A stretch of 64,000 nucleotides of DNA from Trichoplax sp. H2 (Eukaryota), in assembly GCA_003344405.1 (NCBI GenBank), contig NOWV01000130.1, positions 1 to 64,000 of the forward strand, read 5' to 3'. Below, piece by piece: positions 21,744 to 64,000 of this stretch. The notes beneath the pieces are model-generated. The model did not search any database and was not told the origin of the DNA. It saw nothing but the letters and a program-made list of their open reading frames with translations. The translations under genes and the position numbers were made by a program. Positions within the stretch are counted from its first letter, which is position 1; the number at the start of each line of letters is the position of its first letter.

Positions 21744-22771
21744 TCACTTTGTTTTTGCTGAGATCGTAGAAATTGGAAAAATTATAGGATTAATAGCGCA
21801 GTTAAGCTGCAAGCCTAAACTTAGAATGGGGAGTATAACATCTAAAGCTATGTTCATTCGAGTTTCCATCATTACTGAATCATCTACAACAATCATAAAT
21901 ATTACAGCGAGACAAGGAAACCAAAATATAGCATTTGCACATGTAATTATGGCTGCCGTATAGCGTACTTTTTTGCCAGCTTGTTTATTAATTTTTTTCA
22001 ATTTTGTCTTTAACCTGATCCCTCTGGAATATTTAATTTTATAAAATATTAAAACGTAGCTACCAATAACTACTATATAATTAATTGAACCACCAGTTAT
22101 TAGTGCTAGAAGCATCAGTTTGACGCTGATGTAACTCATATTATCGGCTGTGCATAAATTATGATAATGATGAACAACAGCAATCTGTGATGGAAATGTT
22201 ATGTAAGGCACAATGTTACCAACTGTACCTATAGCCGCACTAATTATCCATACAATCATTAACGCTGGAATCAGGCGTTTAGATGTAAAATACAAAGTAG
22301 AAAGATGCAGATAGACAATACTGAAAAGCCGATCTAAAGCCATTATATTCGTGATCATGCTCGTTGCTGAAACTGCAGTAAATGTCAAAAATCTTGCAAT
22401 ATAGCAGAAAGGACTGCGTTGCCAAGTTACAAAAATTTCGCTTGAGTTTAATACAATTGTAAAGTTACCATTATTATAAGAGATTTCATTAGCTTTAAAT
22501 CGATATCGTAAATCAGCAACTGCAACGATAATCAGATAGCATGAACCCCAAAAATCCGATATAGCCAAGTTTCGTATTAGTAAATAAAATTTTTATTACC
22601 ACGAAATATCAAAGATTTGTGAATATTTATCATTTTAGTGAAAATCTTAGGTGAGCGATTACCTTGTTTGGATGCTCGTAGAATTACTAATATATTGCAA
22701 ATTAAGCCAGTTAGTCCACAACTCCACGCCAGACACATAGCTGCAATATTATCACGCAGAATGGATGCCAT
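21744..22771 (-). pseudogene. GPCR broken only by a single 1-nt frameshift (recent pseudogene or sequence error)
   Basis: ORFs 22577-22771 (MASILRDN, TM1) and 21744-22568 (TM2-TM7) span 1028 nt, one short of 343 codons. The shift lies in AAAAATTTT at 22594-22586. Confidence 0.88.
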
Positions 22772-31224: not shown

Positions 31225-32262
31225 CTAGCGACGAAAGATTTGTATGTTGTTATGGGTTAATAGTAAAAGTACTATTGGATTAATACTGGCACTGCTTTGT
31301 AAGATTAACGCAATTATTACTATCATAAATTGTAAGTTATTATTCGATTCAATAATCTTACCATTGGAAACAGTAATAAAAGTTAATGTTAAAGATGGAA
31401 TCCAGACTAAAAAACTAGTGCAACATATAATAGCGGTTACGAATAAGATTTTTCTTTCAATTCTTTGGTTGATACCAATAGGCCTAGCCAATACCGATGA
31501 AAGACTGGCTTTATTATATCTTAATTTTCTCCATATAGTAAAGTACATGAATAGAATAGAGAAATAATTGATAGAGCCAGATAAAGTCAAGGCCAATAGT
31601 AATATTTTAACGTGTAGATAACTGAGATTATCAACTGAACATAAATTATGGTAGCGAAAACTTCTGTTATGAGACATAAAAGGTATTGTCATCGATGCAA
31701 AAATATCGGCCACGGAAGCAGCTATCATACTGCATAGCAACGATATGGTAGATAAGTGAATAGCACGTTTCGCAGTTAAACGTAAATTTGGAGAAAATGG
31801 ATAAATTACGTTTAGAAATCGGTCCAATGCGATGAGCCAAGTAATCATGGTCGAATGACTTACCGATGTAATATTAATAAATCTTGCTGCGTAGCAACCT
31901 ACGTTATTTAGCCACATAAAATAAATCACTGTATCATTTGTGGAAGAACTGGTAACGTTATTATGATCTGTGCAAATGAACCGATATCTCACATCAGCAA
32001 CAGCGAGAATAAGTAAATATATTGAACCGATAAAATCAGCTATAGCTAAATTAATAACAAGAATGCCAAACGTTTGATTCTTAGCAGTCGGCCTTGCTCT
32101 AGAAACAGCTGTTGCTGTTGATACATCAACACGAACAGCACTGGCTGTTTTACGATATTTTATAGCTTTAAAAAAGATCAAACCATTCGCTAAGAATCCA
32201 ATGATACCAAGAATCCATACCATAGCAATAATAGCAATTTCATTGTAAAGGATTGAAGTCAT
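31225..32262 (-). CDS. Intronless class A GPCR (345 aa from ATG 32262; the ORF-track start at 32331 is a TTG)
   Basis: MTSILYNE matches the family start; NLAIADFIGSIYLLILAVAD; ALDRF; YHNLC; VWIP; SINPIVL. Confidence 0.92.
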   Translation of the reverse strand: MTSILYNEIAIIAMVWILGIIGFLANGLIFFKAIKYRKTASAVRVDVSTATAVSRARPTAKNQTFGILVINLAIADFIGSIYLLILAVADVRYRFICTDHNNVTSSSTNDTVIYFMWLNNVGCYAARFINITSVSHSTMITWLIALDRFLNVIYPFSPNLRLTAKRAIHLSTISLLCSMIAASVADIFASMTIPFMSHNRSFRYHNLCSVDNLSYLHVKILLLALTLSGSINYFSILFMYFTIWRKLRYNKASLSSVLARPIGINQRIERKILFVTAIICCTSFLVWIPSLTLTFITVSNGKIIESNNNLQFMIVIIALILQSSASINPIVLLLLTHNNIQIFRR

Positions 32263-33231
32263 GTTAAAGCTATATCGAGTAATTTGCAAATGTAGGACTT
32301 TTGCCACTGATGGTTCATAAGTTTTATTCAATCAATCAAATGTTGCTTACTCGTTAATACTGTAGAGTGATTCGTAATAGCTAATTTTGCAAATTAAATT
32401 ATTGTAAAATATCAGAATTTCGTTGAGACTAACATCATCGACTTGAAATTAATCACTAAGTAGTAGCACATCATTAGCAATGTTTCTTGATCTTCCATAA
32501 TTTAATTATGACGTCAGAGGAGTCATGGCACTATGTTATATATTTAATCAAATTAATTAGATTAGAATTTATCATCCTCTTAGCTAGATCAACTCACTTT
32601 AGCACTTTTTGATATCTATCCTTACAATGATACTTGATGCCGACGACTCGATTTTAAATAGACTTGTAATAGGTCTACTTAGCTAAATATTTGTATATGA
32701 ATAGAAATGTAAGTTACGAAATACTCCTTCGATTGTAAATAGCGCGGAATAATAGTACTGGACTTGACACCTTGAATGCATCCTTTATATATGAATGTCG
32801 CAAATTTTCTTCTTTGTGAACATTTAACTCCTCTAGTAACTAATATCCTAATGCACTCGGGGTACGTATAGGTAATCAATTACTCGAAAAGTATTCAGGT
32901 AAGAAGTTTATTATATCGCTCAACGAGCCTATATAACTACGGAATTTCGGAGCAACTAGTTGTTGTGAGCTCACTCCTTTTATACTCTCTGGGAGCGGCT
33001 GCTGATGCATTCTAACTAGCTGAGCTCTAATCATTTTCTACGTTTAGTATTACGGGGGCAAGGCACCGTAGCAATGAAGTATAAAAGCTTCTTCTACATT
33101 ATCAACATACTGGTATCCTTGTTATTTACTCCTTTATTGCATACTGTAATCAATAATGGGGAATACCCTTCTTAGGTCTGTAAATATATATTATAGCAAT
33201 ATTTCTTTGTAATAGTATTGGTACTTGGTAA

Positions 33232-37714: not shown

Positions 37715-38719
37715 TCATAACCAATTAGATATCGACAACCAAAATATGATCGGATTAATAATGCAATTTGCTTGAAATATGAATATTAGAGTAGAAGTAA
37801 CGTCAAAAACTAATTTAACTTTTAATATTCCATTGTAATACGTAAAGGCTGCTACTCCTACCCCAATTGCAGGAAACCAAACCAAAAAATTAGTCAGGCT
37901 GATTAAAATAGCTAACCGAATTAATTTCCTTTGGATAGGACTTGGATAATAAAGGCGAACCTCACTATTTCTTCGATATTGTATAAGCTTATAAATAATT
38001 AAAATATACATGGATACTATGTATAGGTATAAGATGAAGGCTACAATTGCTATGGTAAATACATGAATACGGATAAAATAGATGCCAATATTATCATAAG
38101 TACACAAATTGTAGAAATGAAATCGCATATCGAAGGATTGATTTTCGGTTATATATGCATAGATACTAAACATAATAGTTATACTAGCACTGGTAAACCA
38201 TCCAATAATGACTAACATAACTGTTCGTTTCGGTGTAAATCGCTTGTTAGAATGTGGATAAGCAACATTCAGATATCGATCTGTAGCTATTAATGTGGTT
38301 ACAAAAATGGATTGCAGACTGGCTAATATGTTACAACATCGTGCAAGATAGCATACCGGGCTACGCTGCCAGTAGACATGGACATAACTGGAATTATAAT
38401 ATATTGATTCATTTGACCAAGCAGAATATACCACGTTTCGATGATATAATTCTGCTACTCCAATAGTGATGAGATAGATGGCTCCTAAAAGGTCGGAAAT
38501 GGCTAAATTGAGTAGTAGAATTTTAAATGTTCGACTTTTAAATATCATTGCCAGTCTCGACGATTGACTAGATATGGATCTTGCGAATATTCTGCGATTT
38601 ACTTTCTGATTGTGTATCACAATAGCGAAAATAATACTGATATTGCCTATAATACCACCTAAACCAACCACCCAAGATGTACTGATGGCTACATAATTAT
38701 TGTATAAAAGCGATGCCAT
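37715..38719 (-). CDS. Intronless class A GPCR, LGR-like 7TM without ectodomain (334 aa)
   Basis: MASLLYNN; GN; NLAISD; WQRSPVC; TDRY; FYNLC; VWFP; NCIINPIIF. Confidence 0.93.
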   Translation of the reverse strand: MASLLYNNYVAISTSWVVGLGGIIGNISIIFAIVIHNQKVNRRIFARSISSQSSRLAMIFKSRTFKILLLNLAISDLLGAIYLITIGVAELYHRNVVYSAWSNESIYYNSSYVHVYWQRSPVCYLARCCNILASLQSIFVTTLIATDRYLNVAYPHSNKRFTPKRTVMLVIIGWFTSASITIMFSIYAYITENQSFDMRFHFYNLCTYDNIGIYFIRIHVFTIAIVAFILYLYIVSMYILIIYKLIQYRRNSEVRLYYPSPIQRKLIRLAILISLTNFLVWFPAIGVGVAAFTYYNGILKVKLVFDVTSTLIFIFQANCIINPIIFWLSISNWL

Positions 38720-40380
38720 AACCTTAAAAAATTATATCAGTTGATAGGTATGAAAATAAAATAATTGGATTTTGAAGTTCTCTCGACGGTAGTCGCAATA
38801 TTGACCTAAGTAAATTCACCACTAATAAATATCGTAGGTGCTTTATCAGCCAGATGAAGAATAATTCTAAGCCACTAGCTGCAGTGCAGAATAAAATCTG
38901 TTGTTGGATGTTATTTGAATATAGAATTATTCTTCGTATATATGAATGATTTATAGCTGCAAATTGTGGCTCATTATGTAAATCACCGAACTAATCTTTT
39001 CTATTTATTTAATATTTATGGATCCAAAATAAAGGAAACAATGGATAAATTAAAATCTAAGTACTTATGTCTTTTTGAGCTATTATTAACATCGGCATTA
39101 GCATTAAGAAACCACATTTACTAACAATTCCTCGAAATATTTTTTAAACTAAATTAATTAATTAAGTTTTATAAAGTAAACGAATAAATATTTCCTAATT
39201 TCTATCAAACTTTAAAATCTTAATTCATAAGCAAAAAACAATAATAACTGCAATGACAGCAATTAAATATACTCTTATTATATCCTTCATTATTGTTTAA
39301 GTATATTCATAAATAGTTAACAACAGTATGAATGACTTCTCTATGAACGAATTGCAGTTATATTTAGTCCTTAATTTATTAATAAAGCCTTCGTAAATCA
39401 GTAGGTAGCATGTGGCAGTTTCTAAAGGTTGCTTTCTAATAATAATCGATTATGGAAGCTTCATGAAATGAAAATAATCTCAACATGGTTATCTATTTAT
39501 ATCATATCATACTATAAGGCCAAATGGCTTCCTTCTAGTTAATTACCAAATTCTATACTATATTGCCTTACATTTGCGCTTTCAATTTTAAGCTAAACTT
39601 ATATTACGGATGCACATTTTTTATGCAGATAAATGCAAATGTATCAGCAAGGAAATAGCAAAACCTAATTTCTACTTGCATTTATTTCCGAGATTTTGCC
39701 TTTGATGCCGTTCAAAATGATCGACAGACTTGTTGGCAAGTTGCTATTCTATTCAATATTTCTTATCGTACGTTTAATCGAGTTTATCGCCTACGAGGCC
39801 GTTAAATTTAAGAGCATTCAAAATCAAAGGCAATTTACTTGTCAGTTTCGTAAAAAAATAATAAACATCTTCCACATGATATTGACTGACTCTAAATAAT
39901 TTTTTCGATCTCCATTCTGATTTTTATCCAAGAATTAAAATATAGTAACTTAATAATTCATTAGAAGGAGTTACCATATGAATACTATAGTCTCATTAAT
40001 CTCAACTTCATATGGCCCCAATCCGATTTACTGGTTCGAAATTAAAAGATATTGTCCCGTATGTAAATAAGATTGTCTAAAATTAATTTTGTGTATATAG
40101 TACAATATTTAATAGCTCTGGTATCGTAAAGTTCCGTCCTTCGGGTAAAATAGTAAGTAAAAAAAGATTACGTCTATGACTAATACCGTTAGTATCAGTA
40201 GGTATGGTTTCGGTATTATTACAAGTTTTAGTACGTTCTAAAGTTAGATAAAATTGTACAAGTTGGCTATGAAATATGCATGTTGTTAATAAATTTTTTT
40301 TATTTGGACTTACGCCCAAATATCGTAATAGACATTACCTGCAGCAGCATATTTTATCATCAATATTTTAAGTATTAGTG

Positions 40381-43910: not shown

Positions 43911-45410
43911 ATGGTATGCCTACTGTGATGGAGGGTTCGATATCTCAGAGGATTGAGATTTAGTCGCCATTTACAATTATTACAACAAAGGGTTTATAAA
44001 AGTTATGTTTTATTGTAGGTTAGTAATGTGAAGTACAGTGAGGTAGTTACGGTAGATCAGCGTGCAAGCTGTCGTGAGTAACGAGTAGAAGTATTAGACT
44101 GTGAGATACTAACTAGAAGACTAATTGAGAGGCTAACGAACTCTGAGGTAGAAATCGCCGGTATTTATAGTTTTAAAGATAGAGCATATGCAGAGAATAG
44201 GATTGTGGAATTAGATACAACATATACCATAACAGGTTACAAAATAGCAGATGGTTGTAGAAAACAACGAGTACCGTAATAACTAAATACAGTAGTCTAT
44301 ATATGAATGTAGAGTAAGCGGATTGTAGATCTGCCTAAATATAAGAGCAATACAGTTATTAAGAGTAGAATATAGTTACAGTATATTCTAAATACACTAC
44401 ACCTACATAATATACTTCGCCATTGGAGTGTCTTGAATACTAAGTTTAAGTGGTATTTTGGGAAATTTATATGTCGTTTTCTTTATCGTATCCTACTTTA
44501 ACAAATCTAAAAGGATGCTCATATTCAAAAAGCAGTCAAGTTCTAAATTCAAGATAAACTCAATCATTAGGAATCGACGATTTATTGTTCTCCTATTAAA
44601 CTTAGCTTGTTCTGATATTTTAGGAGCGACATACTTTCTAATTATCGCTTACGCTGATTTACATTATCGGATAGAACCATCTGCTCATAATAACGCTACA
44701 ATTCGAAATGGTAATAATACATTTACCTTTTGGCTGTGTAGCCCATTCTGCTATATCACCAGAGGTTGCAATATAATTGCTACATTTCAATCAATCTATC
44801 TTACAATACTCATTGCTATAGATAGATATCTTGAAATAACTCATCCTTTTTCGGCTATAGCAATACTGACAATAAAACGCCTTTCAATACTAATCGTCAA
44901 AGGCTAGTTCATTACATTTCTTATCGCTGGCGTATTTAACCTTTATGCGTATTTACTATTCCAAGGTATTTGACATCTTACTCATATTATCATAACTTAT
45001 GTGGTTACGATAGTATTGGCACTTATTTATGTTCGTTTAAGCCTGTTTATCATGTCATTTAGCAGCTCCCCATTTTATCTAGCTATTCTAGTTATTTATA
45101 CATTAATCTTTCATAAATTACAACGGATTCGAATGAACCTAATTATAAACAGAAGAAGCAACTTTATTGAAAGGAAGGTACTAAATTTCGCTATCTTTAT
45201 TAGATTAAGTAATTTTCTTATCTGGTTTCCAGCTATTTCTGCAGCTATCACCACTTTCATTTACTACGAAAGTGCTTTAAGTGAATCAACCTTTTGCATA
45301 TTTGCCACAACGTTATTTTTAAAGCAAATCCTGCAATTAATCCCCTTATATTTTTAATTATGATATCAGGCTGGTTTATTCTCGTTCCAAGGCTGTTTAT
45401 TGGCGGATAG
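43911..45410 (+). pseudogene. Inverted GPCR pseudogene with an LTR inserted at about codon 4-5
   Basis: ATG at 43911, resuming after the LTR as FAIGVS*ILSLSGILGN (TGA 44434-44436). NLACSD, WLCSPFC, AIDRY, NFLIWFP and AINPLIF present; further stops and frameshifts. Confidence 0.85.
43924..44401 (-). mobile_element. 478-bp solo LTR, perfect 5-bp TSD CCTAC
   Basis: TGTGAT...ACTACA termini. CCTAC at 43919-43923 and 44402-44406. Reverse-strand TATAAAT (~44165) and AATAAA (~44011). Confidence 0.85.
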
Positions 45411-48514: not shown

Positions 48515-49591
48515 TCAAGTCCGAGTCCAGAAGAACTTACGCTTATAGTTTGACAGATTTTGAGAGATATTAAAGATGTAAATAATGGGATTAATTGTGC
48601 AGTTAACTTGAAATAATAGCAAGACATTCGGTGCGGTATCCAGAAAACGAATATTGTCGATAGATAAACGATAATTAATAAATATTGCTGTACCACAAGC
48701 AAGCGAAGGAAACCAAGCCACAAGATTAGTAATACTAATACTGGCGGCAATTTTTAACGTTTTCCTTTCAATGTTTTGGTTGAAGGTCTTGCTAACTTTA
48801 ATTTTGGCTGCTATATGCTGTAGTTTAAGATATGTCCCCATATATAAGGATAATGTAAAAATATAACAAATAAACCCGATGACGCTCAAAAGTAACAGTG
48901 AAAATCTAACGAAATTAACGGATACATCAGCAAATGTACATAAATTGCTAAACCGATAACTAATTGACTTAGCGGGTGGAAAAGTTATATAGGAAAACGC
49001 CGTAAACATACTTGCAGTGGCAATTCCAATACTCCAACCACCAATGGAAATCATTTTTGCTTTCTTAGGAGTTATTTCTAAGTTGTTCGAAAATGGAAAT
49101 GCTACGCTAACATAGCGATCAACGGCAATAATCGTAATGATGAAGACAGATTGAAATGAAGATAAAACATTTAGATACCTAGCTGTAAAACAGAATGGAT
49201 TGCCGATCCAATCATGATAAATATTCGATGAATTGATTAGTGACTCTGCCATACTACCATTATTGTAAGGATTAATTTGCATAAACCGATAACGAAGATC
49301 AGCTGCTGCTAAAATAAGTAAATATAATGAGCCAGCTAAATCGGAGGCAGCTAGATTGGCTATCAGGATAATAAATGTTCGATTGCCAACGTATCTGGCT
49401 GTAAATTGGTTACTCGTAATTTCTGATTGCCGGCTATGATCAGAGCTTACTTTAGAAAAGATAGTGCGATTGCTACGTTTCTTTAGAGCCAAAATAATCT
49501 TAAAGACGTAGTAATTAGCGATTATGCCACAAACGCCAAAACACCATGTCAAAGTGATAGCTATCGGGTTATTATAAAGAATTGATGCCAT
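48515..49591 (-). CDS. Intronless class A GPCR, LGR-like 7TM without ectodomain (358 aa)
   Basis: MASILYNN; NLAASD..YLLILAAAD; WIGNPFC; VDRY; FSNLC; AWFP; NCTINPIIY (canonical NPxxY). Confidence 0.94.
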   Translation of the reverse strand: MASILYNNPIAITLTWCFGVCGIIANYYVFKIILALKKRSNRTIFSKVSSDHSRQSEITSNQFTARYVGNRTFIILIANLAASDLAGSLYLLILAAADLRYRFMQINPYNNGSMAESLINSSNIYHDWIGNPFCFTARYLNVLSSFQSVFIITIIAVDRYVSVAFPFSNNLEITPKKAKMISIGGWSIGIATASMFTAFSYITFPPAKSISYRFSNLCTFADVSVNFVRFSLLLLSVIGFICYIFTLSLYMGTYLKLQHIAAKIKVSKTFNQNIERKTLKIAASISITNLVAWFPSLACGTAIFINYRLSIDNIRFLDTAPNVLLLFQVNCTINPIIYIFNISQNLSNYKRKFFWTRT

Positions 49592-51612
49592 AACCCTTCC
49601 ATCAAGGTAAACTTATATATTTTATGAAGCCAACTGCCTTGAAGAGCAAAATAAAATAGGTTTAAATGCAATTATTCTATTCATAATATTCATATTCTAA
49701 AAACTGCTTACCTTAGCACCCCTAATTCAGTATTATTGCTCTGCATTATTTTATCTTATAGTATTGAATTTATTATATATGATTTGTATTTTTCAAGTGT
49801 TACTTCAATGCTACAACAATAATATAAGCAACTATTTTAATTAATAACGCACAAATAATTATATGTAAAATAAAAATATTGCAATAAAATAATAAATTAA
49901 TGAATATCGTATAAACTATAATAGGAAGAGATTGTTACATTGGATCATACATAATACATGCGTACTGTATAACAATTGCTCAAAGTTTAAAATATTATCA
50001 TGTAAAATCTATTGCTAAATATCGGTATTCGTGCTTATAATTCACTGATGGTTAAATGTATTGGTTCTCACATTTGTTAGGATCAACATAAAAACCAAAA
50101 ATTTTATTGGAATAATATCACAGTCTTTTCTAATGGTTTTTATCATGGTACTAAAGTCCAAAGTGATTCAGACATCATCAAAATTATTACATGCTCAAAA
50201 TTTAAACATAAGTCGTAAGGAATATCACCATAAAATTCTAAACCATGATTACACCAAAAGAAGTAGGTTTGAAGTCTACTATCGCCCTTGGCATGAATAT
50301 TAATAGCGATATCGGCATGGAAATTAAGACAAAATAACAAATACAGCTATGCTTTTATTTGCCAATTTGAAATAGCTATAATCAGATGTAAAGTTATAAA
50401 AGCGAAAATAAAATGTTAATGGGGTAAATAATCATATTTATTTTCTTTAAAATTCTATTTTTATTTGCAGCTCTAAAATAGCAGAATTATTAAGGAACTA
50501 GCAAACGTTATTAGACTGTTTCCTCTTTAGTACAAATGTAGCGCAGGAACCCTCTATATTTTAATGTATGATGCTGCTGCATTTGAGCTTCATTAACTAA
50601 ATGAATGTTGCATCTCCAACCAATCTGATTAATACACCCATCACCAAAATATTTTGGATTACTATCAGTATATGTCCTTAACTCTCTTTTTAACCCTATA
50701 GTACTTGAATAAAAATCGGCTAGCCGGCTTAAAAATCATCAATTTAGTGCGGACTAAGCTATTTGTTAAGATATTTCACAATCAGTATAATAACGGCTAT
50801 AAATCATCGTACATAAATACCATATTATTATAACTATAATGGAGCGTGAGGTGGAAAAATTGCAATCCTGACATTATTATATACTAGCTTATACGGGCCT
50901 TCAATTTTAAATACTGTAACAAAGCAGATTTTCACCTTAAGTTTTCGTTGGTCTAACTTTATTGTGAATTAGTCAACTTAGATAGAATAAGATATAGTTT
51001 TCCGCTTTACAATAAATAACCTTCACTATGATTCGATTTCATAAATTTATATTCCATTGATATAAGATAAAACTTTAAATAAAAGTATTTAACAATTCTT
51101 GTTGAGATCACAACTAAAGATTTGATACGATACGTTATAAAATTGTCTAGTCACATCAAGAGATATGCAAATATTGGCATCCAATATAATAGCGAACATA
51201 TTTAATTGATCGCTGTACTGTTAAAATAGCTGCTCAATATTAATTGTAACTATAATTAATTGAAAGAAATAATTCTAATATAGCCACCTATTAACAATTA
51301 ATGCATAAAAAAAATGCTTTACTCTAATTTTCACTTTTATTAATACTGGATTATTCTAAATCATAAGTTATGGAGTGAAAAATACCTGATCATTCATTAA
51401 ATTGACTACAAGTAAATAAACCAAACGCCAAATATCTAGTAATTTTTGGATATAAAATAGTCCAACAAAGACTGCATTACATCATAAGTTAATGCTAGTA
51501 ATTCACATGTCAATCCTTACATCAAATTTTCTGTTAAAATGCGTAGGATTTTCTCACTTTCTTTCATAAAGAGACGAGTCACTGTGATAAGCAAACTGAC
51601 AGCGCTAAGCTA

Positions 51613-52746
51613 CTATTTATACGAATGATTATTTTTACAATTGCCAAGTAGCCTACAGGAATGGCAAAGGTTTAATTCCGTCGTAAATGTTATCAACGTA
51701 ATAGGATTTAAAACACAATTGATTTGAAATAACAAGAGTGAATTCGTAGCAGCATTTCGAAATAGATTATTCACAAGAAATATAGGATGATAGATATAAG
51801 CAACTATGCCACAGATAAAACCAGGAAACCAAAAGAAAAAATTTGTTGAGACGATTATCATAGCAATTTTTAAAATTTTCCATTCAGCTCGTTTACTCCC
51901 AAATTTGTGATTAGGATGTATGCTTATCGACCTTTGTCGAATTTTATAATATATTCCAGCATAAACCACCAATATGACTGTGTAGACAAGTATACCAATT
52001 ATTAAAAATAGCAATACCAATAACCTCACTTCGTAATCTGCATAGTCCTCGAAACTGCACAAGTTATGGTAATCATAACTAGGCGCAGGGGCTGGAGGAA
52101 ATGTAATATAAGCAGCTACAGTAAATGTTGTACCAACACTCATCGCTATTAACCATCCCAATAAACATAGGAACTTCGCTCGTCTTTGTGTTAATTTCAA
52201 GATTGCTGAGAATGGATAAGCAACGCTAATGTAACGATCGATGGCAACAAGCATCATGATATAAGCGGATTGAAAAATAGATACACAATTTATAAATCTT
52301 GCTATATAGCAAAATGGATTACTAATCCAATTTAAATAACTGACTGAAGAATCTGTAAAATGAGTCTGATTGTGTTTATCATGAGCTAATCTGTGATGGA
52401 GATCGGCTGAAGCAATAATTATTAAATACATTGACCCGAGCAAATCAGAGCCAGCGAGATTAATAAGTAGAATCGTAAATGTTCGATTAATGGTTGTTTT
52501 AGTTGGCTTAACAGTTTGATTAAAACGCAATAACTGCTCCTGACGATATATTGAACGAGAAATAATAGCTCGAACACGCTGTAGAGTTGGAGAATTTAAA
52601 AACTTAAGTAGAACCATATTAGCAATGATACCCGCTAGGCCAAATATCCATGATATTAATATTACTGACAGGTCGTTTTCGATTCTGATAGTCACTGACA
52701 TATTGAATGCGGCTATCGGCGACAGCTTTAGTTTTGATTCAGTCAT
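51613..52746 (-). CDS. Intronless class A GPCR (377 aa; alternative start at the second Met, 52701)
   Basis: NLAGSD..YLIIIASAD; WISNPFC; IDRY; YHNLC; FWFP; NCVLNPITL. Confidence 0.93.
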   Translation of the reverse strand: MTESKLKLSPIAAFNMSVTIRIENDLSVILISWIFGLAGIIANMVLLKFLNSPTLQRVRAIISRSIYRQEQLLRFNQTVKPTKTTINRTFTILLINLAGSDLLGSMYLIIIASADLHHRLAHDKHNQTHFTDSSVSYLNWISNPFCYIARFINCVSIFQSAYIMMLVAIDRYISVAYPFSAILKLTQRRAKFLCLLGWLIAMSVGTTFTVAAYITFPPAPAPSYDYHNLCSFEDYADYEVRLLVLLFLIIGILVYTVILVVYAGIYYKIRQRSISIHPNHKFGSKRAEWKILKIAMIIVSTNFFFWFPGFICGIVAYIYHPIFLVNNLFRNAATNSLLLFQINCVLNPITLITFTTELNLCHSCRLLGNCKNNHSYK

Positions 52747-55700
52747 TTTTAAACTGTTTTATTGAAATGGATATCAAATTTAGCCAAGTGAAGGACTTTT
52801 CGTGCTATAACAGATCTAACAAACAAAGTCAAATCTTACTGACGTCATGATGTATTAATGATCCTTTTTGCTTTCTTGAGTCTTTTTAGATCAATATTGA
52901 AGCCAATTAATCAACTTTAATCTAATTAGGTGCAGCTATGAAAGTCAATACCTGAATAAAATAAAAGAACTCTGTAGAAACCTTATGATATTGATTTTTA
53001 GTTTATCTATCTTATTGAAAGGTTCCATACACATGAAAAAGAACCGAATGATCTGGCTAAACTTATTCAATTCATTACCGTATGCTCAGTTATTATCTAA
53101 AAATATCAATCTGATTGTATCACAGAATTAGATGCCGTGTCTTCTTCTTCTATTTCTCTTAGTTTATATCGACGAATATAAACTGAGACAGCAATATTCC
53201 TTATTTAGCCGCCTTAATTAATTATATTATCGGTCATTAATTTTATGACGCTTAATTAATAAATTAGGGAGGCAACTTGCTCGACTTGATCATTAGAAGG
53301 TTTTACGTTTCATCTTAAAATATTCTAATAATTATAATCTATTTGCTAACATAAAATAAAACCATTTTATGCGTATGTGACGATGATGTTGTTGATTGCT
53401 ACAATTTAAATCCTCACCAAGGTTACTATTATTTAAATCACAGCCAGTATTTTCACAACATCGTATTTGTCAATTATGAGCCATGCCTTTACTGTCAACG
53501 TTTCTATTTTGATTAATTCAAAAGCAGTAATCGATTTAAGCACTATTCATTTTCGGGAACATATAAATTGTCAGTTACTTATTATGAATTAGTCAGATAA
53601 GAACTTCTTTGCTCTTGGTCACATTTTGTAATCATTTCCTAAGGCATAAGCTTTATATTCAATCTCTTACAATTGTTAATATCATTTCCGAATACAGTGA
53701 GTCCAATAGCCGTAACAGTCAATTATAAATTCATCGATTAATGATAAAATCGTTTATTTTGCTATTGTTATTGATATATTTGCTATAATATATGTTGAAG
53801 AGCTAGATTCTGCTGGAATCGTAACTACGTAGATATTGCGGTATTTAGAGAGCAATTTACCTGAATTAGATTGACGTTAATAGAAGTGGAAAGAAAATTT
53901 GTTCAAGAAATTCAGAAATCAAAATTTAAGTTAGAACATGGAATGAAGAATGCACAGTATTCAACTCTGTCATAGATTAGAAGGAGACCTAAGTAATGTC
54001 TAAGTGCTTTTCGCTCCTTATTTTCATTTAGAATTTTATTGTAGCACCAGGTATGCGAACAACTACAGTACTTCAAGACTCGTCGGATTTTATAATACCT
54101 TATGCATTAACAGTATAGAATAATATCATAACTTTAGAGGATATGAATCGAGCAAGCATGTACCCTTGCTTAGATTTCACCTACTGTAGCTATATATTAG
54201 GCGAGAGACGCCAATATTGCTACTAATCGTTGTTATATAGTACTAGTGCAACCTATCGATCGGAAAATAGATAGATAACTTGTAACGTGGTCGAATGGAT
54301 TACTGATGAAACCTGAGTAGGCGATCAATGAATTATAATACGATTCTCATAAATTGATTCCTTCATATGTGAATAATATTTAATAGATACTGGCACTACA
54401 GACTATACAAATAATAAAACAGAAGCTTGCTTCACTGCCAGAAGTATTCCTTTATACTACAGTGTATTGGCTTTAAAGTTAAATAATAAAATGATTTATT
54501 TGTGGTAATATGTACAGGAATTTGAGCAAATAAGTTGTTAAGTTTTGCTATATCTACACCTGTAAATACTACAACATCGTCTTTCATAACATTTTACAAT
54601 AACTATTTTGAATTATCAAAGTAACGTCATGTCGAATAGTATGCCAGCTTCTACGGATTCTTTTATGATAAATAGTATTTCAAAATTAATGTACAATGTA
54701 TAATTTTAAGAAATACAATGTATTAAATGCAAAATTTGTAGTGCAAACATATAATTTAGTCTAAGTTCACTTTAAGTGATGTCTAGATACGGTTAAATGA
54801 GCAAATAATTACTGGCTTTAATATTAGCTTGCAAAGTGAAAAGTTTTCTGAATTTATGCATATCATCCATTTTTTAATAAGTGATGATTATAATTATGTC
54901 TAGTAGTAATATCACAAAATAATATATGCTTGGAATGTTCATATTTATCATTTGCAGTACCTATATTTGTCATAATTGCTGTAAATGTAGCCCTTGATGG
55001 ATATATTTATATGTGACTTGACGTCAAGTTACTCCGGTAAAGACTCAGATGAAGTAATACTTGTGTAATCTCCACAAGTTAAATTTATTAACTTCTATCC
55101 AAATAGAATTAGAATTACTCTTAGCAAGGTAAGAGTTTATATACGACTAATGTTCTTTACAATTGATATCTCAAGAACTTCGCTACCTTAGCGAGTATCT
55201 CTTGACACTAAAATCCTTGAATGACCGATAGCACGATGTGCACAGTTATAAGTATGTAGTCTTTCGGCTACTGGTTGATTACAGATAAGTTAGTTCAACT
55301 GACTGGATATAGTTCTCTTACGATAACACGTACCAATACAGTTATCCTATCTTATGTAGTACTGTACATATTCTGTAAATAATACCAAATTACGACAATA
55401 ATGTGACTTTACGTATTAGCTAAAATTAAGATTTATTTTCGATTTTTAATATAAATTTAGTCTATTTTATTTCTTAATACAGTTATTCTCACATGATCAA
55501 TATCTTTGTAGCATTTTTGTTCATCATATCTATCATGGTACATGGAGCTTACGTGATTGTATGTTGATGTAACGAAGTGACTCCAAACTGTACTTTCTCT
55601 GGAGAGAGTGAGACATGCAGTAATTAACGGCGAAAGGAGTATATACATAGGTCTCTTATTATAGAAAATTACCTGCTACATATTAAAGCCATGCATTTGC

Positions 55701-56700: not shown

Positions 56701-58184
56701 ACGCTGTTTTAAATCTATATATAAACATGCTGTGACACGAGTTTTAAAGTTATTAATGAATTTCGTAAATAAAGCGCTTTCATTATGATTATTACATAGT
56801 TTGTCAACTTCTTGTCAATAAATAGCCGATTAAACGAACGAGGCTCAGCACGCTATTCGCACGTTACCGGAACTTCGCGGCGGGTGCTAAGGTGACGCCA
56901 ATATTAGTATCTATAAAGATTATACTAATTAATTTCAGAACAAGCTTACACCTTGATTGTCTAGCAAAACTATACGCGACTAATATTCATAGTTACTCTT
57001 TACCGTATTGCCATTAGCTACATAACGAAATCTACTTAATTAACATGTACGGTGCTTTACTCCGTAACAATTGTATGTAATGAAGTATTGAATTGTGAAC
57101 GAAACTAAATGTTGGTGCCTACAAACACTAATCATTATTATATATTCAATATTATCTAATAAAAGGATAATTTCCCACAAAGTAGTCTGTAAATTTACAA
57201 GGTGTACAACTAAATACAGAACCGATACAATAGTTCAATACGAGATGTATGATCTTGTTCTCTGCATGTGCGCTATTTCTAAAATTATAAATACCACCAA
57301 TTTCTACCTCAGAATTTGTTGGGTACAATAGTCACAATGTTAGTATTTTCCACGTTACTTCACGACAGTTTACGTACTGCTCTACCGTAACTACCATATT
57401 GTACGCAATTTTATAATACAACAAGTTATCTGTTCTTACTAAAAAAAATTGTATATTTCTCTGTGTGGTAATAAATCCGCTGCAGCTGACTTATCGAACT
57501 CCCCATCACATACAGATATATGTATACGGCTAATGCCAACACTGATTAAACGATATTGATCGAAGTTAGTAAACTCACTAGATGTAAAGCGCAGATACTC
57601 ATTGGTAGATCAGATAAGATTATATTACAAGCACATATTGAGGGAGTTTAAATGATTTATAGAAATATTTTTATCTAAGCATCAGAGATTAACAAAAATA
57701 GAAGTACTTGTCAATTAATTTAGGTTTTATAGTGCAACGTAATTGTAATTTTTCACTAATAATGACGGTATTTAATATTTTTATAACTAGAACTACAATA
57801 GTCTTTACATAGTATGTAACAGGCAATAAATAATCTAACCTTTTTAAATTTTTATTTTAGAATGCACATAATGTACATCAATAAACATATAGAGCGGCTC
57901 TACAATTTAAGATATCATACAACCGGTGAAACGATAAATTTTACAAACAGTACCGGAATATAGTAAATTACGAAAAGGTTTTCCACAAAAGAAATAGCCT
58001 GATATATCGAATTAACGGCAATAAAATATAAAATATATGAAGACATAAATAATTCCAGCACTGATATAAATAAGATGCAAACTTACAAATCATAAGATAG
58101 GTCAGATCGTGTAAGCATGTATATTACTGTGTATGATAAGCTATAATACAGGCGTTCAGTAGCAATTCTGTTTAAATAACAAGG

Positions 58185-60082
58185 CTACAAATTCGAAACA
58201 TCCATTTCATCAGAAGTCAACTTCATTTTTTTACCAATGGCTATATTTCTTCTTATTGCAAGACAAATCATATTATTCCCCAAATAATAATTGGATGTAA
58301 CGATATTCATCTGAACTTTGTTCAGCTCATTAGATAACCAATCATCGATTTTAGGATTGATTTTATTACTTAGAGTTTGAATACTAAAAGGAATTTGGTT
58401 ATTAGTTGCATCAAATGTTGTAAACTCTGAAATAGAAAGACTTTTGTTATCAGTACGATAATAATCTTTAAAATGGATAAATAGTTTCTTTTCTCTTTCA
58501 ATTAGAATTATTGGTTTAACTGAGTGTATTGGACCCCAAACCAAGTCACTGTCTTGATACTTTGAACTACAATTTATTTTATTGTACGATGTAAGGATTC
58601 GTGTGTTATCTTTCCAAAGCGTTGCCAATACCTTGCCTGCGTAGGATTTTGGCATCGCATATCCTTTCAACTTGTCCAATATAACATCTAACAGATTATC
58701 GTGGATCGTATCTTCATCAAAATCATAAAAATCTACAAAATGTATGATTAATACCTCATTTATATTTCTTGCGGCAAATGTCTTAATCGTGTGTAGAAAT
58801 GATGTTACTGAAATTTTCGAAAGCCATTTGTTATGACTAAGCCAAAATTTTGTCTTAAACGATGGCAAATATCTTACTCGTAAATCGAAATAACGTATTC
58901 CATCACGTAATTGATTCGCTATATTTTCTGTTTGAGTTTGCGACCATGGTGTCAGCATCGGAGCCGACATATTATAACAGGCTGAACAATAAGTTCCAGG
59001 AATGACCAGATCTTGCAGTCGTAAATTTTGCAAAGAATGTTTATATTTAGCCATCCAATTAGTAAAATTGTGAAATTTAGCTACTTCACTTATCATAAAT
59101 CTTGCTTCTTTGGAGCTGTAGGTAATATATGCTACGTAATAGTGTCGATTACGTGCAAACTCTACTACAGTATTGCAAGAATTATTATAATTTGCTACCC
59201 AACACCACTGCCCTTGAATATAATTACTTACATTCCTTGGATAATGGCGATAAATAGCTACATAGTCCCATGTCAATGCCTTATCACCACGAAACCATTT
59301 TAGATCAAATGTTAAGCTTTTATCAATTCCATACTTAAAAGTATACTGGCCGGATGCAGTTAGGTAAGGATTATGCCGATATCGTGTAACGTTATGAATT
59401 CGCTTCGTATTTTCCATGTTTACCTCTATCGGAGGGATTAACGGATGAGGTCTTTGGGCATAGCCGTAACCATCATCTTCTGGAGTTAATGAAGGTGAGA
59501 CAGTTTTGAATGATTCAAATTCTTTGATTAAAAATCCACATACCTTGGTTTTATTACACGAGTATGTATAATACACGATATAGTAAGTGTAATCCTTGTC
59601 GTAACCTAAATTCGTTACAATTCTATCGGAGAGACGCATATTTAGCCAATGCTGATAACACGATTGGTAAATTGCTTCGCTCTTTTTCTTGCATAATATG
59701 GCAATGTAATCATACGCGTTAGGCATAACACCAGCTACCCACGAAATTATAATGTAAGTGTTATTATACGGCATCGCCCATCTTTGCAATCGCATTTTCA
59801 GTTTGACATAACTTTTTTTCATTGCTGTTCGATTTAATTCCGCAGGTTGAAACTTTTGTATTAGTACTTTCAGTGCTACTGGATTTATATTAGCTAACAG
59901 TCTTGTCTTCATCGCAGGAATTAGATTTATGTTCGCGATTTCAGGGTCTGTTATGCTTGCGTTGTAATAAAATGAATAAAAATTTATTATAGGGTTATTT
60001 CCGGCATAGATAAGTAACTCCAATTGCTTATATTTGTTGGTTGTCATTATTGTTATAGACGGCTTCGGTTGCAAAGTGAATT
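58185..60082 (-). CDS. Coding exon 5: end of GH31 N-domain, linker, two Ig/SKICH-like repeats, PI-PLC X (PLCXD-like) domain
   Basis: AATCTAG|AA FTLQPKPSITIMTT...LELLIYAG; WM...LQDLVIPGTYCS; TQ...I.NQL.DGIRYFDLRV; FWLSHN; NEVLII; MNIVTSNY. Confidence 0.88.
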
Positions 60083-61515
60083 CTAGATTGTATAAAATGG
60101 TCATCTACTAAGTTATGTACACTGCAATCATACAAATGAAAATTACTAATCGCTCGAGTATATTAATATATCATAACGTTATTATTAATAAAAGACAGCA
60201 ATTACGGGTAAATTAAGTGATAACCCAAAATGTTTTATCTTACTTGTAGTTTGGTGACCACGCAGCGCTACGATATAATAATCATTATTATCCTCTTTGA
60301 CAATATATCCTGGGAAATGGAACTTATCGGTACCGATGGCATCCTTCATAATATAAACAATGCGATATGAGTATTTCTTTTTAATGTAACTACTGGTTAC
60401 TACTCAAACAGGTTCCATGCTTACTTGAGATAATTTCGGAGTAAACGTTTTCCAAGTCTTCCAGTTAAATATCTTTCCAGAGGGAGAATCACCCTCTAGC
60501 CCAAAGATATCTTTCGATCCTAGCTTAGATGACAATTGCACTAAGTCATTCTCAAAAATAAATCCACCTGTAGAGGTATCAAACCTAAGGACCAATAATA
60601 TGCAATACATATTTTAATAACATATAAAAAGATGCAGCCTATATTTATAGTTCCTACATATATCTACATATCTTCCACGCTGTAATGCATAATTAATCTG
60701 ACGCACATTGCTTTACCGGTCGACCTTCGTATAACCTTTAATGCAAACGGGTTATGATTACAATAGATGTAAAAGTCTCCCGCACCGTAATTATTGCTAG
60801 GTTGTTTCGAGAAATTGGATGGATAATATCGAGGGTCATAAAACTAAAATTCGTAATAAGGCCAATAAGATCAATCAGTGACTGATTGTACAATAAAGGA
60901 TGCTTTATTGTATATGTAGAAAGGACACATTTTGAGCGCCGTTGTAATAAGAGCACGACGTATCTTATTTCACTACGTAACATCTTAAGTTACCTTAATC
61001 GATAGCATTGCTGGACGATAATGTTCGATAGTAACCATGATATCAGTTAATGCCTTGCTGCTGTAATAAGGAGTATCACAACGGCGTAACTTTGCAATGA
61101 AATCTTTACTAGTTATTTCAGTGCGATTACGAATTTGATATCCGTAATTAACCGGAAAATAGCATGATGGAACAGCATTGCCGCTTGAAGCTCCCCAACA
61201 ACATCCCCGTTCCTTGCATCCTTTCTCTGTTGCTAGCCCAACCGGGTAGCAATCAATTCTATCTTCCACGTCATCACTGCAAACTACATCGTTTTTACCG
61301 CAAACAAATTTTGCAGTGGTAGAAGAAGGAGACGTTATGATCCCAGCAGTAGTTACAGTTTTAGGTAATAGCTTTGGTGTATCAATTTTTTCATGATGAT
61401 TCGAGTGTGAAATAATTTGCAGATTGGACCGATTGATGTGATATATAATTACCAACGTTGCTATAATTACAATTACTAAAGGCACTATTCGTTTACGTCC
61501 ATGGCCGGTAAACAT
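58185..61515 (-). CDS. Predicted 5-exon chimeric gene (~938 aa): GH31 N-terminal half fused to 2 Ig/SKICH-like repeats and a PI-PLC X domain
   Basis: join(61515-60994,60843-60707,60584-60425,60343-60244,60082-58185) = 2817 nt with an open frame. All introns are GT-AG, with phases 0,2,0,1. Confidence 0.8.
60244..60343 (-). CDS. Coding exon 4 (not in ORF track): divergent GH31 HPFY..ED region
   Basis: TGAAG|DAIGTDKFHFPGYIVKEDNNDYYIVALRGHQTT(A)|GTAAGA. 100 nt, phase 0 to phase 1; weaker AAG acceptor. Confidence 0.75.
60425..60584 (-). CDS. Coding exon 3: GH31 N-terminal beta-sandwich
   Basis: CCTTAG|G FDTSTGGFIFENDLVQLSSKLGSKDIFGLE...NWKTWKTFTPKLSQ|GTAAGC. Confidence 0.88.
60707..60843 (-). 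CDS. Coding exon 2 (not in ORF track): GH31 N-terminal domain
   Basis: TTTTAG|FYDPRYYPSNFSKQPSNNYGAGDFYIYCNHNPFALKVIRRSTGKA(AT)|GTGCGT. Matches the GH31 pattern PF...V.R.S.G. Confidence 0.85.
60994..61515 (-). CDS. Coding exon 1: type II signal anchor, S/T-rich stalk, trefoil (P-type) domain, start of GH31 N-terminal domain
   Basis: MFTGHGRKR-IVPLVIVIIATLVIIY; C...RIDCYP....EKGCKERGCCW......VPSCYFP; ends MLSIK|GTAACT. Confidence 0.9.
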
Positions 61516-64000
61516 GATCAATCCAAGCCAAATGAGCTACATTTGTATATTATTAAAAAGGCAAGATGTATTATGATTAGAGTTGCTAACCTAGTTATCA
61601 TGATAAACAGGACGTAAACATAAAGTATCCTATTTAAAATTTAGCAGAATTGAAAAGTCGAAAGCACGAAAGATCTCGTTTAAAACGGCTTTACTGTATT
61701 GATTTCTATACATCCGCGATATTATATGATGTGTATGAAGTCAGGTCTAACTATAGTCTTATGTTTTTACTGATTAGGATACATATAAGCTAGATATTCC
61801 AGAACAGGCTAACAAGGTAAAGGATATTCGTTTTTGTATTAATCTTTTAAGCGACCTTAAAACTAATTAACTATAATGGACTATAGTTCAACTGATATCC
61901 AACGAAGCCTAGCTCGTACATTATTATCAAATTATAGGAAACGATTAAAACGATAAAATAATAACGTAATAGTTTATTAGCAAATAATCTTCAGGTACGG
62001 TTGAGTTTATTGGTTAGTAGATGCGAAATCTGTTATATCCTCATCGAGAGGCACAATACCTTACCGTCTATTAAATTTCGAAATACCGATGATCTAAAGT
62101 AAATAAAATAGTCCAATCAAGCAGGACGTAATTTTTCTTAAGAATCAAATTTTACAGCTAAACCTGTATTTTGACCTAGGAAGCAAGAATTTAATTAATT
62201 AATTTAGTCTAATAAAAGTTCCATAGCATTCATTGATACATTTAAGAATTCGCTATTAATAATGTTATGTTATTAATTAATTACAGCAAATTGTTCTTCA
62301 AAATCCTAAAATGAATTTCCTTTAACAGTACGACAGCGTAATGTATGCTCAAAAACAAGTATCAAATGTATGCGGCCTTGGCTGTAAATCATTTTAATAA
62401 TAGTAGATAATTATAATGATTTCGTCTGATTGATGATAAACATGTGTGTCCGCAAAAATGGCATAGCTAGTCTGGTACTATAATTCGTTAGTGAACTTTA
62501 GAAATCTTAACGATTATTAAAATATTGCAAGTCTTGGGTATTTGCCTGGTACCCTTTGACTCTTCAAATTAAGGAAAATAAGATTGAATTAAATCAACTA
62601 CTGTATGTGCAGTAAAGTACAGTGTCATCATTGTATTGTACAATTCATACGTGGTAAAGTAGCAATGGAACAATGTCGCGCCATCTTATTACAGTATCGT
62701 GTAAAATAGATGCCCAAAAACAGATTGATGATTTCTGTCTGAATAATAATAAAAACTGTTTATGATTAACTGTTATTTCATCCTTTACGCAAAATTAATC
62801 AATCCACCATACGTACGTTACGTAAGTAGATCTTAGCTACGAATAAATCGAAAAACTGTACGCATATTTATTCTATGTTATTTGCTATAAAGCTTGTAGA
62901 TTGCCTTTTCGAGTTTACTGTTCAAGTGTAAATTAATGTAACAACTTTTTGAGTTGTTGCGAGATAGCCATCATCCGGTATCCACTGTTGGTAGTTTTAA
63001 AGTGATAAAGAAAAAATTAACATATTAATCTCCCTACCTATTCGTCATTCTCGGTAGTTAGTTTAGGTATCTGCAATACCGTGCCAAAATTAGATTATGC
63101 TTGTACAGTAGGTTCGATTAGATTACACTGTACTGTATTGTACAGTATACATGTACTGTATGTACTAAGTTCGGCAATTAGGCCTGAGTGGACTGTAAAA
63201 CTGAACTGTATCCATTTTACAATAGGCATTTCGAAGCTAGTATTAATTAATTAATTTTAGATTGCGTACAAATAGCATCATTGTAGCGTTGGCCTATAGT
63301 GCTATACAATACAATATTGTACTTGTAAGATATTAACAATAATTAAGTCATCATGATTGTAGGTTTTATGCAAATTGAAATCCAAATTAAGTGGCAGGCA
63401 ATATAAAGAATGAGCCTTACCGTAATGACATCCCTTGCAAGTTAATCAGGATTGAAAAATATCAGCAAACTAACCGTAGACAACTAAACAATGAGCAATA
63501 CAGTATTGTGGTGTAAAAGTATTCATGCTTGAATCTTTACGAACAACGTCTAGTTCGCTAGCCTATGCCTATACTATGAACCGATCATGCTGTACATTAA
63601 TCTTTTAAGCAACTTTTCATTCTTCTTGATGATACCTTTTAATCGCTAAATATTTTCAACATACAAAATGACACAATAGGCGTACTCTGTATGAATTATC
63701 ATAATAACTACATCTTGAAACATGATCGTAGCAAAGCATCCAGGAAAGACATACGTATACGAGTAGTACAGATATTACAACCAATTTCTACGTGTACTTC
63801 CTTACCGTTTGTCAACGTTTATCGACGTGTAAATCGGCCAGTCTTGACAGCTACTTTCTCATGGTAAAGGTGAGTAGTACAGTAAAATTTTAATTATAAC
63901 GAACGTCGTCTATGGAAACGATAGATTAATTAGTTATAGCATGTATTTGCTGCAATAGCGTATCAATCAATGCTTAATAGCGGTACTTACCAATTTTACG

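Follow-up and report, generated by a model that had tools for sequence, protein, structure and literature searches.

Do an apparent glucosidase fragment and a phosphatidylinositol phospholipase C (PI-PLC) reading frame, which lie side by side in a placozoan genome, belong to two genes or to one, and, if to one, what could the product do? The two open reading frames (ORFs), at 60985-61536 and 58185-60104, are present on the minus strand of a 64 kb stretch of contig NOWV01000130.1 from the placozoan Trichoplax sp. H2. This stretch is referred to here as the window, and all positions are given in it; it is AT-rich (~30% GC), and two small exons lie between the ORFs. An initial annotation, made from the letters alone, had joined these pieces into a chimera, in which the catalytic barrel of a glycoside hydrolase family 31 (GH31) glucosidase is swapped for a PI-PLC X domain. 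The analysis described below indicates that the locus is a single spliced and expressed Trichoplax gene with six exons, the first of which is non-coding. The gene and its composite architecture are almost certainly real.

Gene structure and transcripts

A scripted join of the five coding exons (minus strand; 61515-60994, 60843-60707, 60584-60425, 60343-60244, and 60082-58185) gives 2817 nt with one terminal stop, encoding 938 amino acids. The four coding introns (150, 122, 81, and 161 nt) are all of the GT..AG type, in phases 0, 2, 0, and 1. The translated join is identical to a 938-residue entry, hereafter P0001, which is already in NCBI, UniRef, and EukProt under the names "Sucrase-isomaltase, intestinal [Trichoplax sp. 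H2]" or "P-type domain-containing protein". What is new is therefore the recognition of the architecture alone, and not the sequence.

This stretch, or a part of it, was contained in 20 of 24 sequencing runs, and the RNA-seq on record consists of three runs from one study (X11-X13). In each of these three runs, all four coding junctions are joined at the exact predicted places within one contig, which skips exactly 161, 81, 122, and 150 nt (CT..AC on the plus strand). The splice joints listed for the three runs include no others, and none leads to other exons. In addition, one contig (X12 record 6, 2797 nt) runs unbroken from 57743 in the 3' untranslated region (UTR), through all of exon 5 including the region around 59960, to 61053 in exon 1. 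The DNA-like contrast, X1, which contained 96% of the sampled words, yielded just two pieces, 24 and 19 letters long, and was uninformative.

All three RNA runs also exhibited a loose end at 61537, where 29-138 letters do not fit the genome. The 29-letter consensus of these loose ends has a unique match at 62066-62094, with no chance match in 100 shuffles, and the matched segment ends with "...TAG ACG", followed by a gtaagg donor, and places an in-frame stop ahead of the ATG. These results indicate that a non-coding exon (exon 0) precedes a 528-nt intron in the 5'UTR, a feature that the initial annotation did not contain. Genome-colinear contigs of low depth from the RNA libraries were also seen over this intron (X11 record 4, 61508-62000; X12 record 8, 61730-62000, in the opposite orientation), and they could stem from intron retention, pre-mRNA, DNA carry-over, or a different transcript. 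At the other end of the gene, a canonical AATAAA polyadenylation signal was not seen, and the end of the 3'UTR is therefore approximate.

The coordinates, the intron lengths, and the 2817-nt ORF of the initial annotation were thus all reproduced; the contigs of all three RNA runs cross the four junctions, and X12 record 6 covers the region 60082-59000, which it had singled out for RNA mapping. Two ways in which the chimera might have dissolved, a misassembly near 59960 and the splicing of exon 4 or 5 to GH31 exons elsewhere, were looked for. The contigs are unbroken near 59960 in the three RNA runs, and no such splicing was found among the listed RNA joints.

The GH31-derived front, the PLCXD-type unit, and the predicted membrane anchor

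In P0001, Pfam detects a Trefoil domain at residues 79-121 (E-value 4e-10; score 39.8 bits, cut-off 21), which is a six-cysteine P-type trefoil and matches the trefoils of SI and MGAM in fold (Foldseek, root-mean-square deviation ~2.1). The Pfam models of the GH31 N-domain have no listed score in P0001, and the GH31 likeness was therefore tested by direct comparison with solved structures. A phmmer search of the PDB matched residues 77-337 to MGAM (E 1.6e-56, its N-terminal and C-terminal units alike), SI (1.2e-29), NtMGAM (3e-28), and GAA (~2e-12). The GH31 alignments show 26-34% identity, and every one of them stops at residue 336-337. For three single-unit GH31 enzymes, the alignment with P0001 ends 15 residues before the start of the Pfam barrel model (307/322, 312/327, and 282/297). 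The 33-residue tail at the beginning of exon 5 (308-340), taken alone, was colinear in 26 of 52 testable GH31 hits, whereas each of 20 shuffles gave 0-2 colinear hits of 52; taken one by one, these 26 alignments all fall short of significance (independent E-value < 0.01), and the hit set includes redundant cluster members. Homology to GH31 past residue 337 was considered and rejected: a BLASTP alignment to P0142 reaches residue 385, yet has almost no identities after 337. A word-index search with residues 60-340 returned only P0001 itself among 687 candidates, which reflects a limit of that method.

The structural models point in the same direction. With an alignment restricted to GH31 N-domain fragments (A3), AlphaFold2 (AF2) gave a predicted local distance difference test score (pLDDT) of 84-94 for residues 70-250 and 77-90 for residues 280-345, the model being uninformative beyond residue 350. 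Foldseek matched this model to SI, MGAM, and GAA with E-values down to 7e-18 over 275-296 columns, and all listed matches are GH31 enzymes. When the mixed alignment A1 was used, residues 166-375 were modelled poorly (pLDDT 22-39), because of an alignment problem that was cured with A3. The loop at residues 251-279 (window ~60343-60467, exons 3-4) has a pLDDT of ~41-46 even in the otherwise confident model of the GH31 sandwich.

The remainder of a GH31 enzyme was not found. The GH31 barrel family PF01055 has no Pfam hit in P0001 at E ≤ 10, and it scores 326-368 bits in three ordinary GH31 relatives; the C-terminal domain family PF21365 has no hit in P0001 and is present in P0019, P0027, and P0037. 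Six full-length GH31 queries matched the window only at 61284-59991 (E ≤ 1), indicating that the coding sequence for a GH31 barrel is absent from the 64 kb. Since P0001 contains neither the GH31 catalytic barrel nor the C-terminal domains, "sucrase-isomaltase" is a misleading automatic name.

What follows the GH31-derived part is of PLCXD type. The unfused paralogue P0004 (571 residues) aligns through its residues 3-567 with residues 370-927 of P0001 (35% identity, E 1e-127). Because P0004 aligns end to end, the whole paralogue unit, and not the barrel alone, is attached. Between the two parts lies a linker of 32 residues (338-369), for which no relative was detected, and which is 66% identical in P0002, the candidate orthologue described below. 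These alignments place the fusion junction within the linker, inside exon 5.

For the attached unit, AF2 with A1 modelled residues 400-930 well, the pLDDT being mostly 63-91 for residues 400-640 and 85-98 for the barrel. Foldseek matched residues 370-640 to tandem fibronectin type III (FnIII) pairs (PTP-delta Fn1-2, DCC, LAR, and neogenin; E ~1e-4). In the ESM Atlas, a search by features with residues 341-640 yielded no usable hit and the structure rows all had template modelling (TM) scores < 0.5, a generic likeness, and BLASTP between the two halves of the middle region gave just E 0.017 over 32 residues. The predicted two-sandwich repeat is thus backed by fold and not by sequence. The SKICH family (PF17751) was examined as an alternative assignment for residues 501-640 and rejected, since its match (E 0.51) is below the 23.4-bit cut-off and the Foldseek matches shown contain FnIII pairs and no SKICH. 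Sub-threshold SKICH matches ahead of the barrel recur in P0018, P0028, P0004, and P0001 (E 0.0013, 0.019, 2.4, and 0.51, respectively). This recurrence suggests that the combination of a sandwich with an X-type barrel is ancient and common among animal PLCXD-like proteins.

The barrel itself is recognized by Pfam as PI-PLC-X (PF00388) at residues 685-803 (E 1e-6; score 28.8 bits, cut-off 23.1), and it matches PI-PLC structures of the PDB in phmmer (E ~1e-7 to 6e-9) and with a profile (E 6.6e-25). With the last ~300 residues, Foldseek retrieved bacterial PI-PLC barrels at target TM scores of 0.66-0.75 (3ptd, E 6e-11; 1aod, TM 0.75). The closest named barrel-only relatives are arthropod PLCXD1/3-like proteins.

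At the N-terminus, the sole segment with a hydropathy above 1.8 comprises residues 6-29 (Kyte-Doolittle 19-residue maximum of 2.49). It is preceded by the basic residues GRKR, AF2 models a helix at residues 10-35, and Ser and Thr make up 10 of the 26 residues in the stalk at 45-70. P0001 is predicted from the hydropathy and the helix to be a type II (signal-anchor) membrane protein. The hydrophobic segment is also seen in the orthologue fragment P0008 (9-28), and none is seen in the unfused paralogues; the fused copies contain 10 and 9 cysteines, compared to 3-5 in the unfused ones. The limitation of the additional cysteines and the hydrophobic segment to the fused copies fits a move to the extracellular or luminal side.

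These results agree with most of the domain composition proposed in the initial annotation, namely a Pfam Trefoil and PI-PLC-X without a GH31 barrel, with the difference that the GH31 N-terminal sandwich was recovered by PDB phmmer and Foldseek and not by Pfam. The proposal that the start of the PI-PLC ORF is itself GH31-like is borne out by the alignments reaching residue 337 and by the colinearity of the isolated tail. The fusion point lies inside one continuous frame, as had been argued, because the end of the GH31 alignments and the start of the P0004 homology are both in exon 5, and the lone hydrophobic segment after basic residues is in line with the suggested type II orientation. The term barrel swap requires amendment: a different TIM barrel does follow, but the added part consists of the linker and a whole 571-residue unit with two fn3-like sandwiches.

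Catalytic residues, relatives, and the proposed fusion

The key catalytic residues of PI-PLC are His32, Asp33, Arg69, His82, and Asp274 (PMC9572076). His32 is the general base and also coordinates the substrate, and the H32A mutant is inactive, yet shows weak membrane association and PtdIns competition (bioRxiv 10.1101/677229). In PLCXD2, the H57L/H132L mutant is inactive (bioRxiv 10.64898/2026.09.13.750855).

In the alignment, the "IPGSHDS" of Staphylococcus aureus PI-PLC corresponds to "IPGTYCS" in P0001, and in the barrel profile the family motif "DF" aligns to Asp274 of the Bacillus cereus enzyme ("...QDYINEK", ending at residue 279), where P0001 has Asn904. Three of the five key residues are thus replaced (His32>Tyr671, Asp33>Cys672, and Asp274>Asn904). 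R708 (= Arg69, which binds the phosphate) and H723 (= His82, the general acid) are kept, as are the family-conserved Q690, R703, and D706. Among the other rows of A1 with a residue at the position concerned, 671 is His in 41 of 44, 672 is Asp in 29 and Asn in 11 of 43, and 904 is Asp in 41 of 48. In the four unfused paralogues, 671 is His, 672 is Gln, Asn, Asp, and Asp, and 904 is Asp. The Tyr-Cys...Asn combination is shared by P0002 alone among the A1 rows, and a motif scan, which located both motifs in 45 of 64 barrel-bearing proteins, found His in 43 and Tyr-Cys in two, P0001 and P0002. Since the equivalents of His32, Asp33, and Asp274 are lost, the barrel probably does not cleave phosphatidylinositol (PI) by the standard mechanism, and it is probably no longer a phospholipase. 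The loss of three of the five residues would favor the binding function suggested in the initial annotation over catalysis.

An exhaustive HMMER search of 1.84 billion representative proteins gave 1376 hits at E ≤ 1e-3, the best 150 of which were examined. A total of 153 proteins were scored against three segments of P0001 (GH31, middle, and barrel): 89 matched the GH31 segment only, 53 the barrel only, and 10 the middle plus the barrel, and the one protein that matched all three was P0001 itself. No other protein with both halves was found among the best 150 of the 1376 hits, and since such a protein would rank near the top, the architecture is not widespread. The novelty claimed for it, which an architecture common in databases would have undone, therefore stands on this count, but the sequence had already been deposited. 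A tblastn search with P0001, P0004, and P0005 found this locus alone in the window. No published discussion of P0001 was found in targeted searches for papers on Trichoplax or placozoan PI-PLC, PLCXD, and sucrase-isomaltase, or, by title and abstract opening, among the listed papers on Trichoplax and trefoil proteins.

Two of the relatives are informative for the age of the fusion. P0002 (621 residues, 61-62% identical) begins at query residue 320, within the GH31 tail, and carries this tail and the PLCXD unit in one ORF. P0008 (177 residues, 55% identical) ends at the exon 1 donor, with the anchor and seven cysteine positions as in P0001. They look like pieces of a candidate orthologue in a more distant placozoan. 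The identity to these fragments varies little from part to part: it is 68% for the trefoil, 67% for the GH31 tail, 66% for the linker, 63% and 69% for the two sandwiches, and 58% for the barrel; the unfused paralogue pairs between those lineages are 68-78% identical. In a maximum-likelihood tree of 29 rows, the six placozoan-type units form one clade (100/99) with three well-supported pairs, and the stem of the fused pair is 0.74, compared to 0.28 and 0.20 for the other two.

The RNA contigs differ from the window at 11 coding positions, six synonymous and five non-synonymous. All five non-synonymous differences are in the barrel (58225-58952, codons 684-926), and the three differences in the GH31-derived exons (60548-61054) are all synonymous. 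These small numbers hint at a looser constraint on the barrel than on the GH31-derived exons.

One paralogue, P0005 of T. adhaerens (814 residues), has an N-terminal extension of ~250 residues (1-249), which may come from a merged or mispredicted model. The idea that its N-terminus is a second ecto-enzyme fragment, which would have pointed to a recurring pattern, was rejected, with a sub-threshold match to DUF4982 (276-315, E 0.13) and no structure match at E ≤ 1.

We propose an old fusion, in which a break inside a GH31 exon would have been joined, before the split of the two placozoan lineages, to a copy of a PLCXD-type paralogue that now lies in a single exon. A module that is soluble and probably cytosolic when unfused would thereby have been placed after a membrane anchor and brought to the surface of the cell or into the lumen. 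Having lost the general-base pair, at Tyr671 and Asn904, together with Asp33, the barrel would most likely not cleave PI. Instead, it may have become a module that binds, without catalysis, an inositol-phosphate-type or other ligand and is displayed alongside the carbohydrate-binding-type trefoil and sandwich. The chances for and against this non-catalytic surface-binding role appear about evenly balanced, and the explanation as a whole, comprising the gene, the architecture, the old fusion, and the putative binding module, is rather probable. A further step would be that the barrel replaces the glucosidase barrel against the trefoil and sandwich, so that a new composite, non-catalytic site would recognize an inositol-glycan of the glycosylphosphatidylinositol (GPI) type or a glycolipid, as a receptor or lectin on the feeding epithelium. 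We regard this as a speculative and distinctly doubtful extension. If it were true, the ligands of the composite site would be prey, microbes, or the animal's own GPI-anchored proteins, and two enzyme scaffolds would have been turned into one surface receptor.

Several points weigh against the fusion and binding-module explanation. The RNA evidence consists of assembled contigs from one study, which are blind to transcript starts, and an internal start may exist for an additional barrel-only isoform. The orthologue is represented by two separate ORF fragments on short contigs, P0002 and P0008, which are presumed to derive from one gene and one organism. No placozoan GH31 donor was found among the nearest nameable GH31 hits, all 14 of which are bilaterian and of SI/MGAM type. 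The predicted type II topology is drawn from hydropathy and a modelled helix, and the putative binding role from residue identities alone. Because the substrate is also coordinated by His32, inositol binding may be weaker in its absence, and any ligand may be something else. The barrel is the least conserved folded domain and holds all of the non-synonymous differences, which could reflect relaxed constraint and not the upkeep of a binding site. Finally, all three replacing residues, Tyr, Cys, and Asn, are polar and are found unchanged in the orthologue, which leaves room for altered chemistry.

The last point leads to the possibility that the barrel remains enzymatic with a changed chemistry or substrate, for example as an ecto-phosphodiesterase whose targets would be GPI anchors, inositol-phosphoceramides, or another phosphodiester and in which Tyr671 or Cys672 would be catalytic, the GH31-derived front serving only to anchor and target it. 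The retention of R708, H723, Q690, R703, and D706 and the confidently modelled barrel fold are compatible with such an enzyme, as is the long stem of the fused copies, which is expected for a change of function. In addition, Tyr-Cys...Asn is identical in the 61%-identical orthologue and is therefore conserved and not drifting. Nevertheless, the general base of the Bacillus enzyme is lost, activity is abolished by H32A and by the double-His mutation of PLCXD2, the equivalents of His32, Asp274, and Asp33 are all gone together, and 43 of the 45 relatives with the motif located retain the His. An altered enzyme is thus unlikely. The same loss of catalytic residues, the low conservation of the barrel with its five non-synonymous differences, and branches of the fused pair that are longer than those of the paralogues would also be seen if the fusion were a functionless evolutionary accident, a transcribed and translatable relic heading to decay. 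Such a relic is very improbable: the 2817-nt frame is intact over five coding exons, and RNA shows each of the introns spliced out; identity is 58-69% for every part, the GH31 tail and the linker included, where paralogue pairs reach 68-78%; all seven cysteine positions of the trefoil region are conserved; and the synonymous differences are not outnumbered (six versus five), although non-synonymous sites are far commoner.

It is scarcely credible that the chimera is an artefact, whether from faulty assembly near 59960, from a gene model merged in error, or from RNA contigs that are themselves chimeric. The RNA support does come from assembled contigs of one study and not from single molecules, and the doubtful N-terminal extension of P0005 shows that gene models in the PLCXD-type family can be unreliable. 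However, three RNA runs each cross the four junctions and position 59960 without a break or loose end, the fusion point is inside one open exon, and an independent contig of the 61%-identical relative encodes, in a single ORF (P0002), the GH31 tail together with the PLCXD unit.

The old fusion with a putative binding module represents a case of transcript-supported domain shuffling in an early-branching animal, in which a glucosidase front would be reused as a membrane-display scaffold. It offers a natural experiment on what a GH31 trefoil and N-domain can do without the barrel, and P0001 is a candidate extracellular pseudo-phospholipase. Under its present "sucrase-isomaltase" label, the protein would wrongly be taken for a digestive glucosidase when placozoan feeding is studied comparatively. 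The chimera is lineage-restricted and, so far, a curiosity of one small phylum.

Feature coordinates, neighboring genes, and comparison with known systems

The features of the gene and of its neighbors are collected in Table 1. The rest of the window (5580-52758) is a cluster of nine ORFs matching rhodopsin-type G-protein-coupled receptors (GPCRs; Pfam 7tm_1). Seven of them are above the 7tm_1 cut-off (E 1e-13 to 4e-25), and two, which are short or partial, are below. Most are apparently intronless and on the strand of the chimera.

Table 1. Positions of the chimeric gene, its predicted protein regions, and the neighboring receptor ORFs in the window
Feature	Position	Strand	Evidence or remark
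Exon 0 (5'UTR), 3' part	62065..62094	-	RNA-contig loose ends, unique genome match
5'UTR intron, 528 nt, GT..AG	61537..62064	-	donor GT 62064-62063, acceptor AG 61538-61537; join implied by loose ends
Exon 1, ATG at 61515	60994..61536	-	predicted signal anchor, Ser/Thr stalk, trefoil, start of GH31 sandwich
Predicted signal anchor, residues 6-29	61429-61500	-	hydropathy
Trefoil, residues 79-121	61153-61281	-	Pfam Trefoil
Exon 2, GH31 N-terminal beta-sandwich	60707..60843	-	RNA junctions 60843/60994 and 60582/60705 (3/3 RNA runs); MGAM/SI alignment
Exon 3, GH31 N-terminal beta-sandwich	60425..60584	-	RNA joints, GH31 alignment; tblastn with GH31 proteins matches 60583-60422
Exon 4, GH31 N-terminal beta-sandwich	60244..60343	-	RNA joints, GH31 alignment
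Start of exon 5, end of GH31 sandwich, residues 308-337, ending "...AGNNP"	59991..60082	-	end of MGAM/SI/GAA alignments
Linker, residues 338-369, placed to hold the fusion junction	59895..59990	-	between GH31 end (337) and start of P0004 homology (370)
Two predicted fn3/Ig-like beta-sandwiches, residues 370-640	59082..59894	-	AF2, Foldseek
PLCXD/bacterial-type PI-PLC TIM barrel, residues 641-938	58188..59081	-	Pfam, PDB phmmer, profile, Foldseek
Tyr671-Cys672 codons, place of catalytic His32-Asp33 of Bacillus PI-PLC	58986..58991	-	alignment
Asn904 codon, place of catalytic Asp274	58290..58292	-	profile alignment to B. cereus enzyme
Stop codon	58185-58187	-	end of PI-PLC barrel frame
3'UTR as far as RNA contigs reach	57693..58184	-	X11 record 2 (from 57693), X12 record 6 (from 57743)
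GPCR ORFs	5580-6656, 14272-14847, 21744-22592, 26682-27722, 31225-32331, 37715-38731, 48515-49612, 51613-52758	-	Pfam 7tm_1
GPCR ORF	44437-44907	+	Pfam 7tm_1

SI and MGAM carry a signal anchor at the N-terminus and a stalk rich in Ser and Thr, as P0001 is predicted to do. In SI, MGAM, and GAA, as in P0001, a P-type trefoil is followed by an N-terminal beta-sandwich, but these enzymes continue with their (beta/alpha)8 catalytic barrel and the proximal and distal C-terminal domains, which P0001 does not have. The order of trefoil and beta-sheet domain has been described for GAA (PMC5653652). The "N-loop" of the MGAM N-domain helps build the active-site pocket (PMC12805851); whereas this loop serves the barrel in MGAM, P0001 has no GH31 barrel that a loop of this kind could complete.

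The closest counterparts of the back half are the unfused placozoan paralogues P0003-P0006, which have the same middle and barrel segments. Among them, P0004, named "PI-PLC X domain-containing protein 3" of Trichoplax sp. H2, consists of two beta-sandwiches and a barrel, as does the 571-residue unit of P0001. In contrast to P0001, these paralogues have no anchor, keep the first catalytic His and the Asp equivalent to 274, contain fewer cysteines, and lie on shorter branches. Animal PLCXD1-3 and the bacterial PI-PLCs of Bacillus, Staphylococcus, and Listeria have the X-domain-only TIM barrel in common with P0001; they are soluble or secreted and active via the His32/His82 pair, whereas the barrel of P0001 is predicted to be tethered behind GH31-derived domains.

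PRIP is a cytosolic protein of the PLC-delta type. PRIP/PLCL differs from P0001 in belonging to another branch of the family and in having neither GH31 parts nor a membrane anchor. Nonetheless, as a PLC-like protein without catalysis that acts by binding, it provides a precedent for the role proposed for the P0001 barrel, the likeness being one of principle and not of descent.

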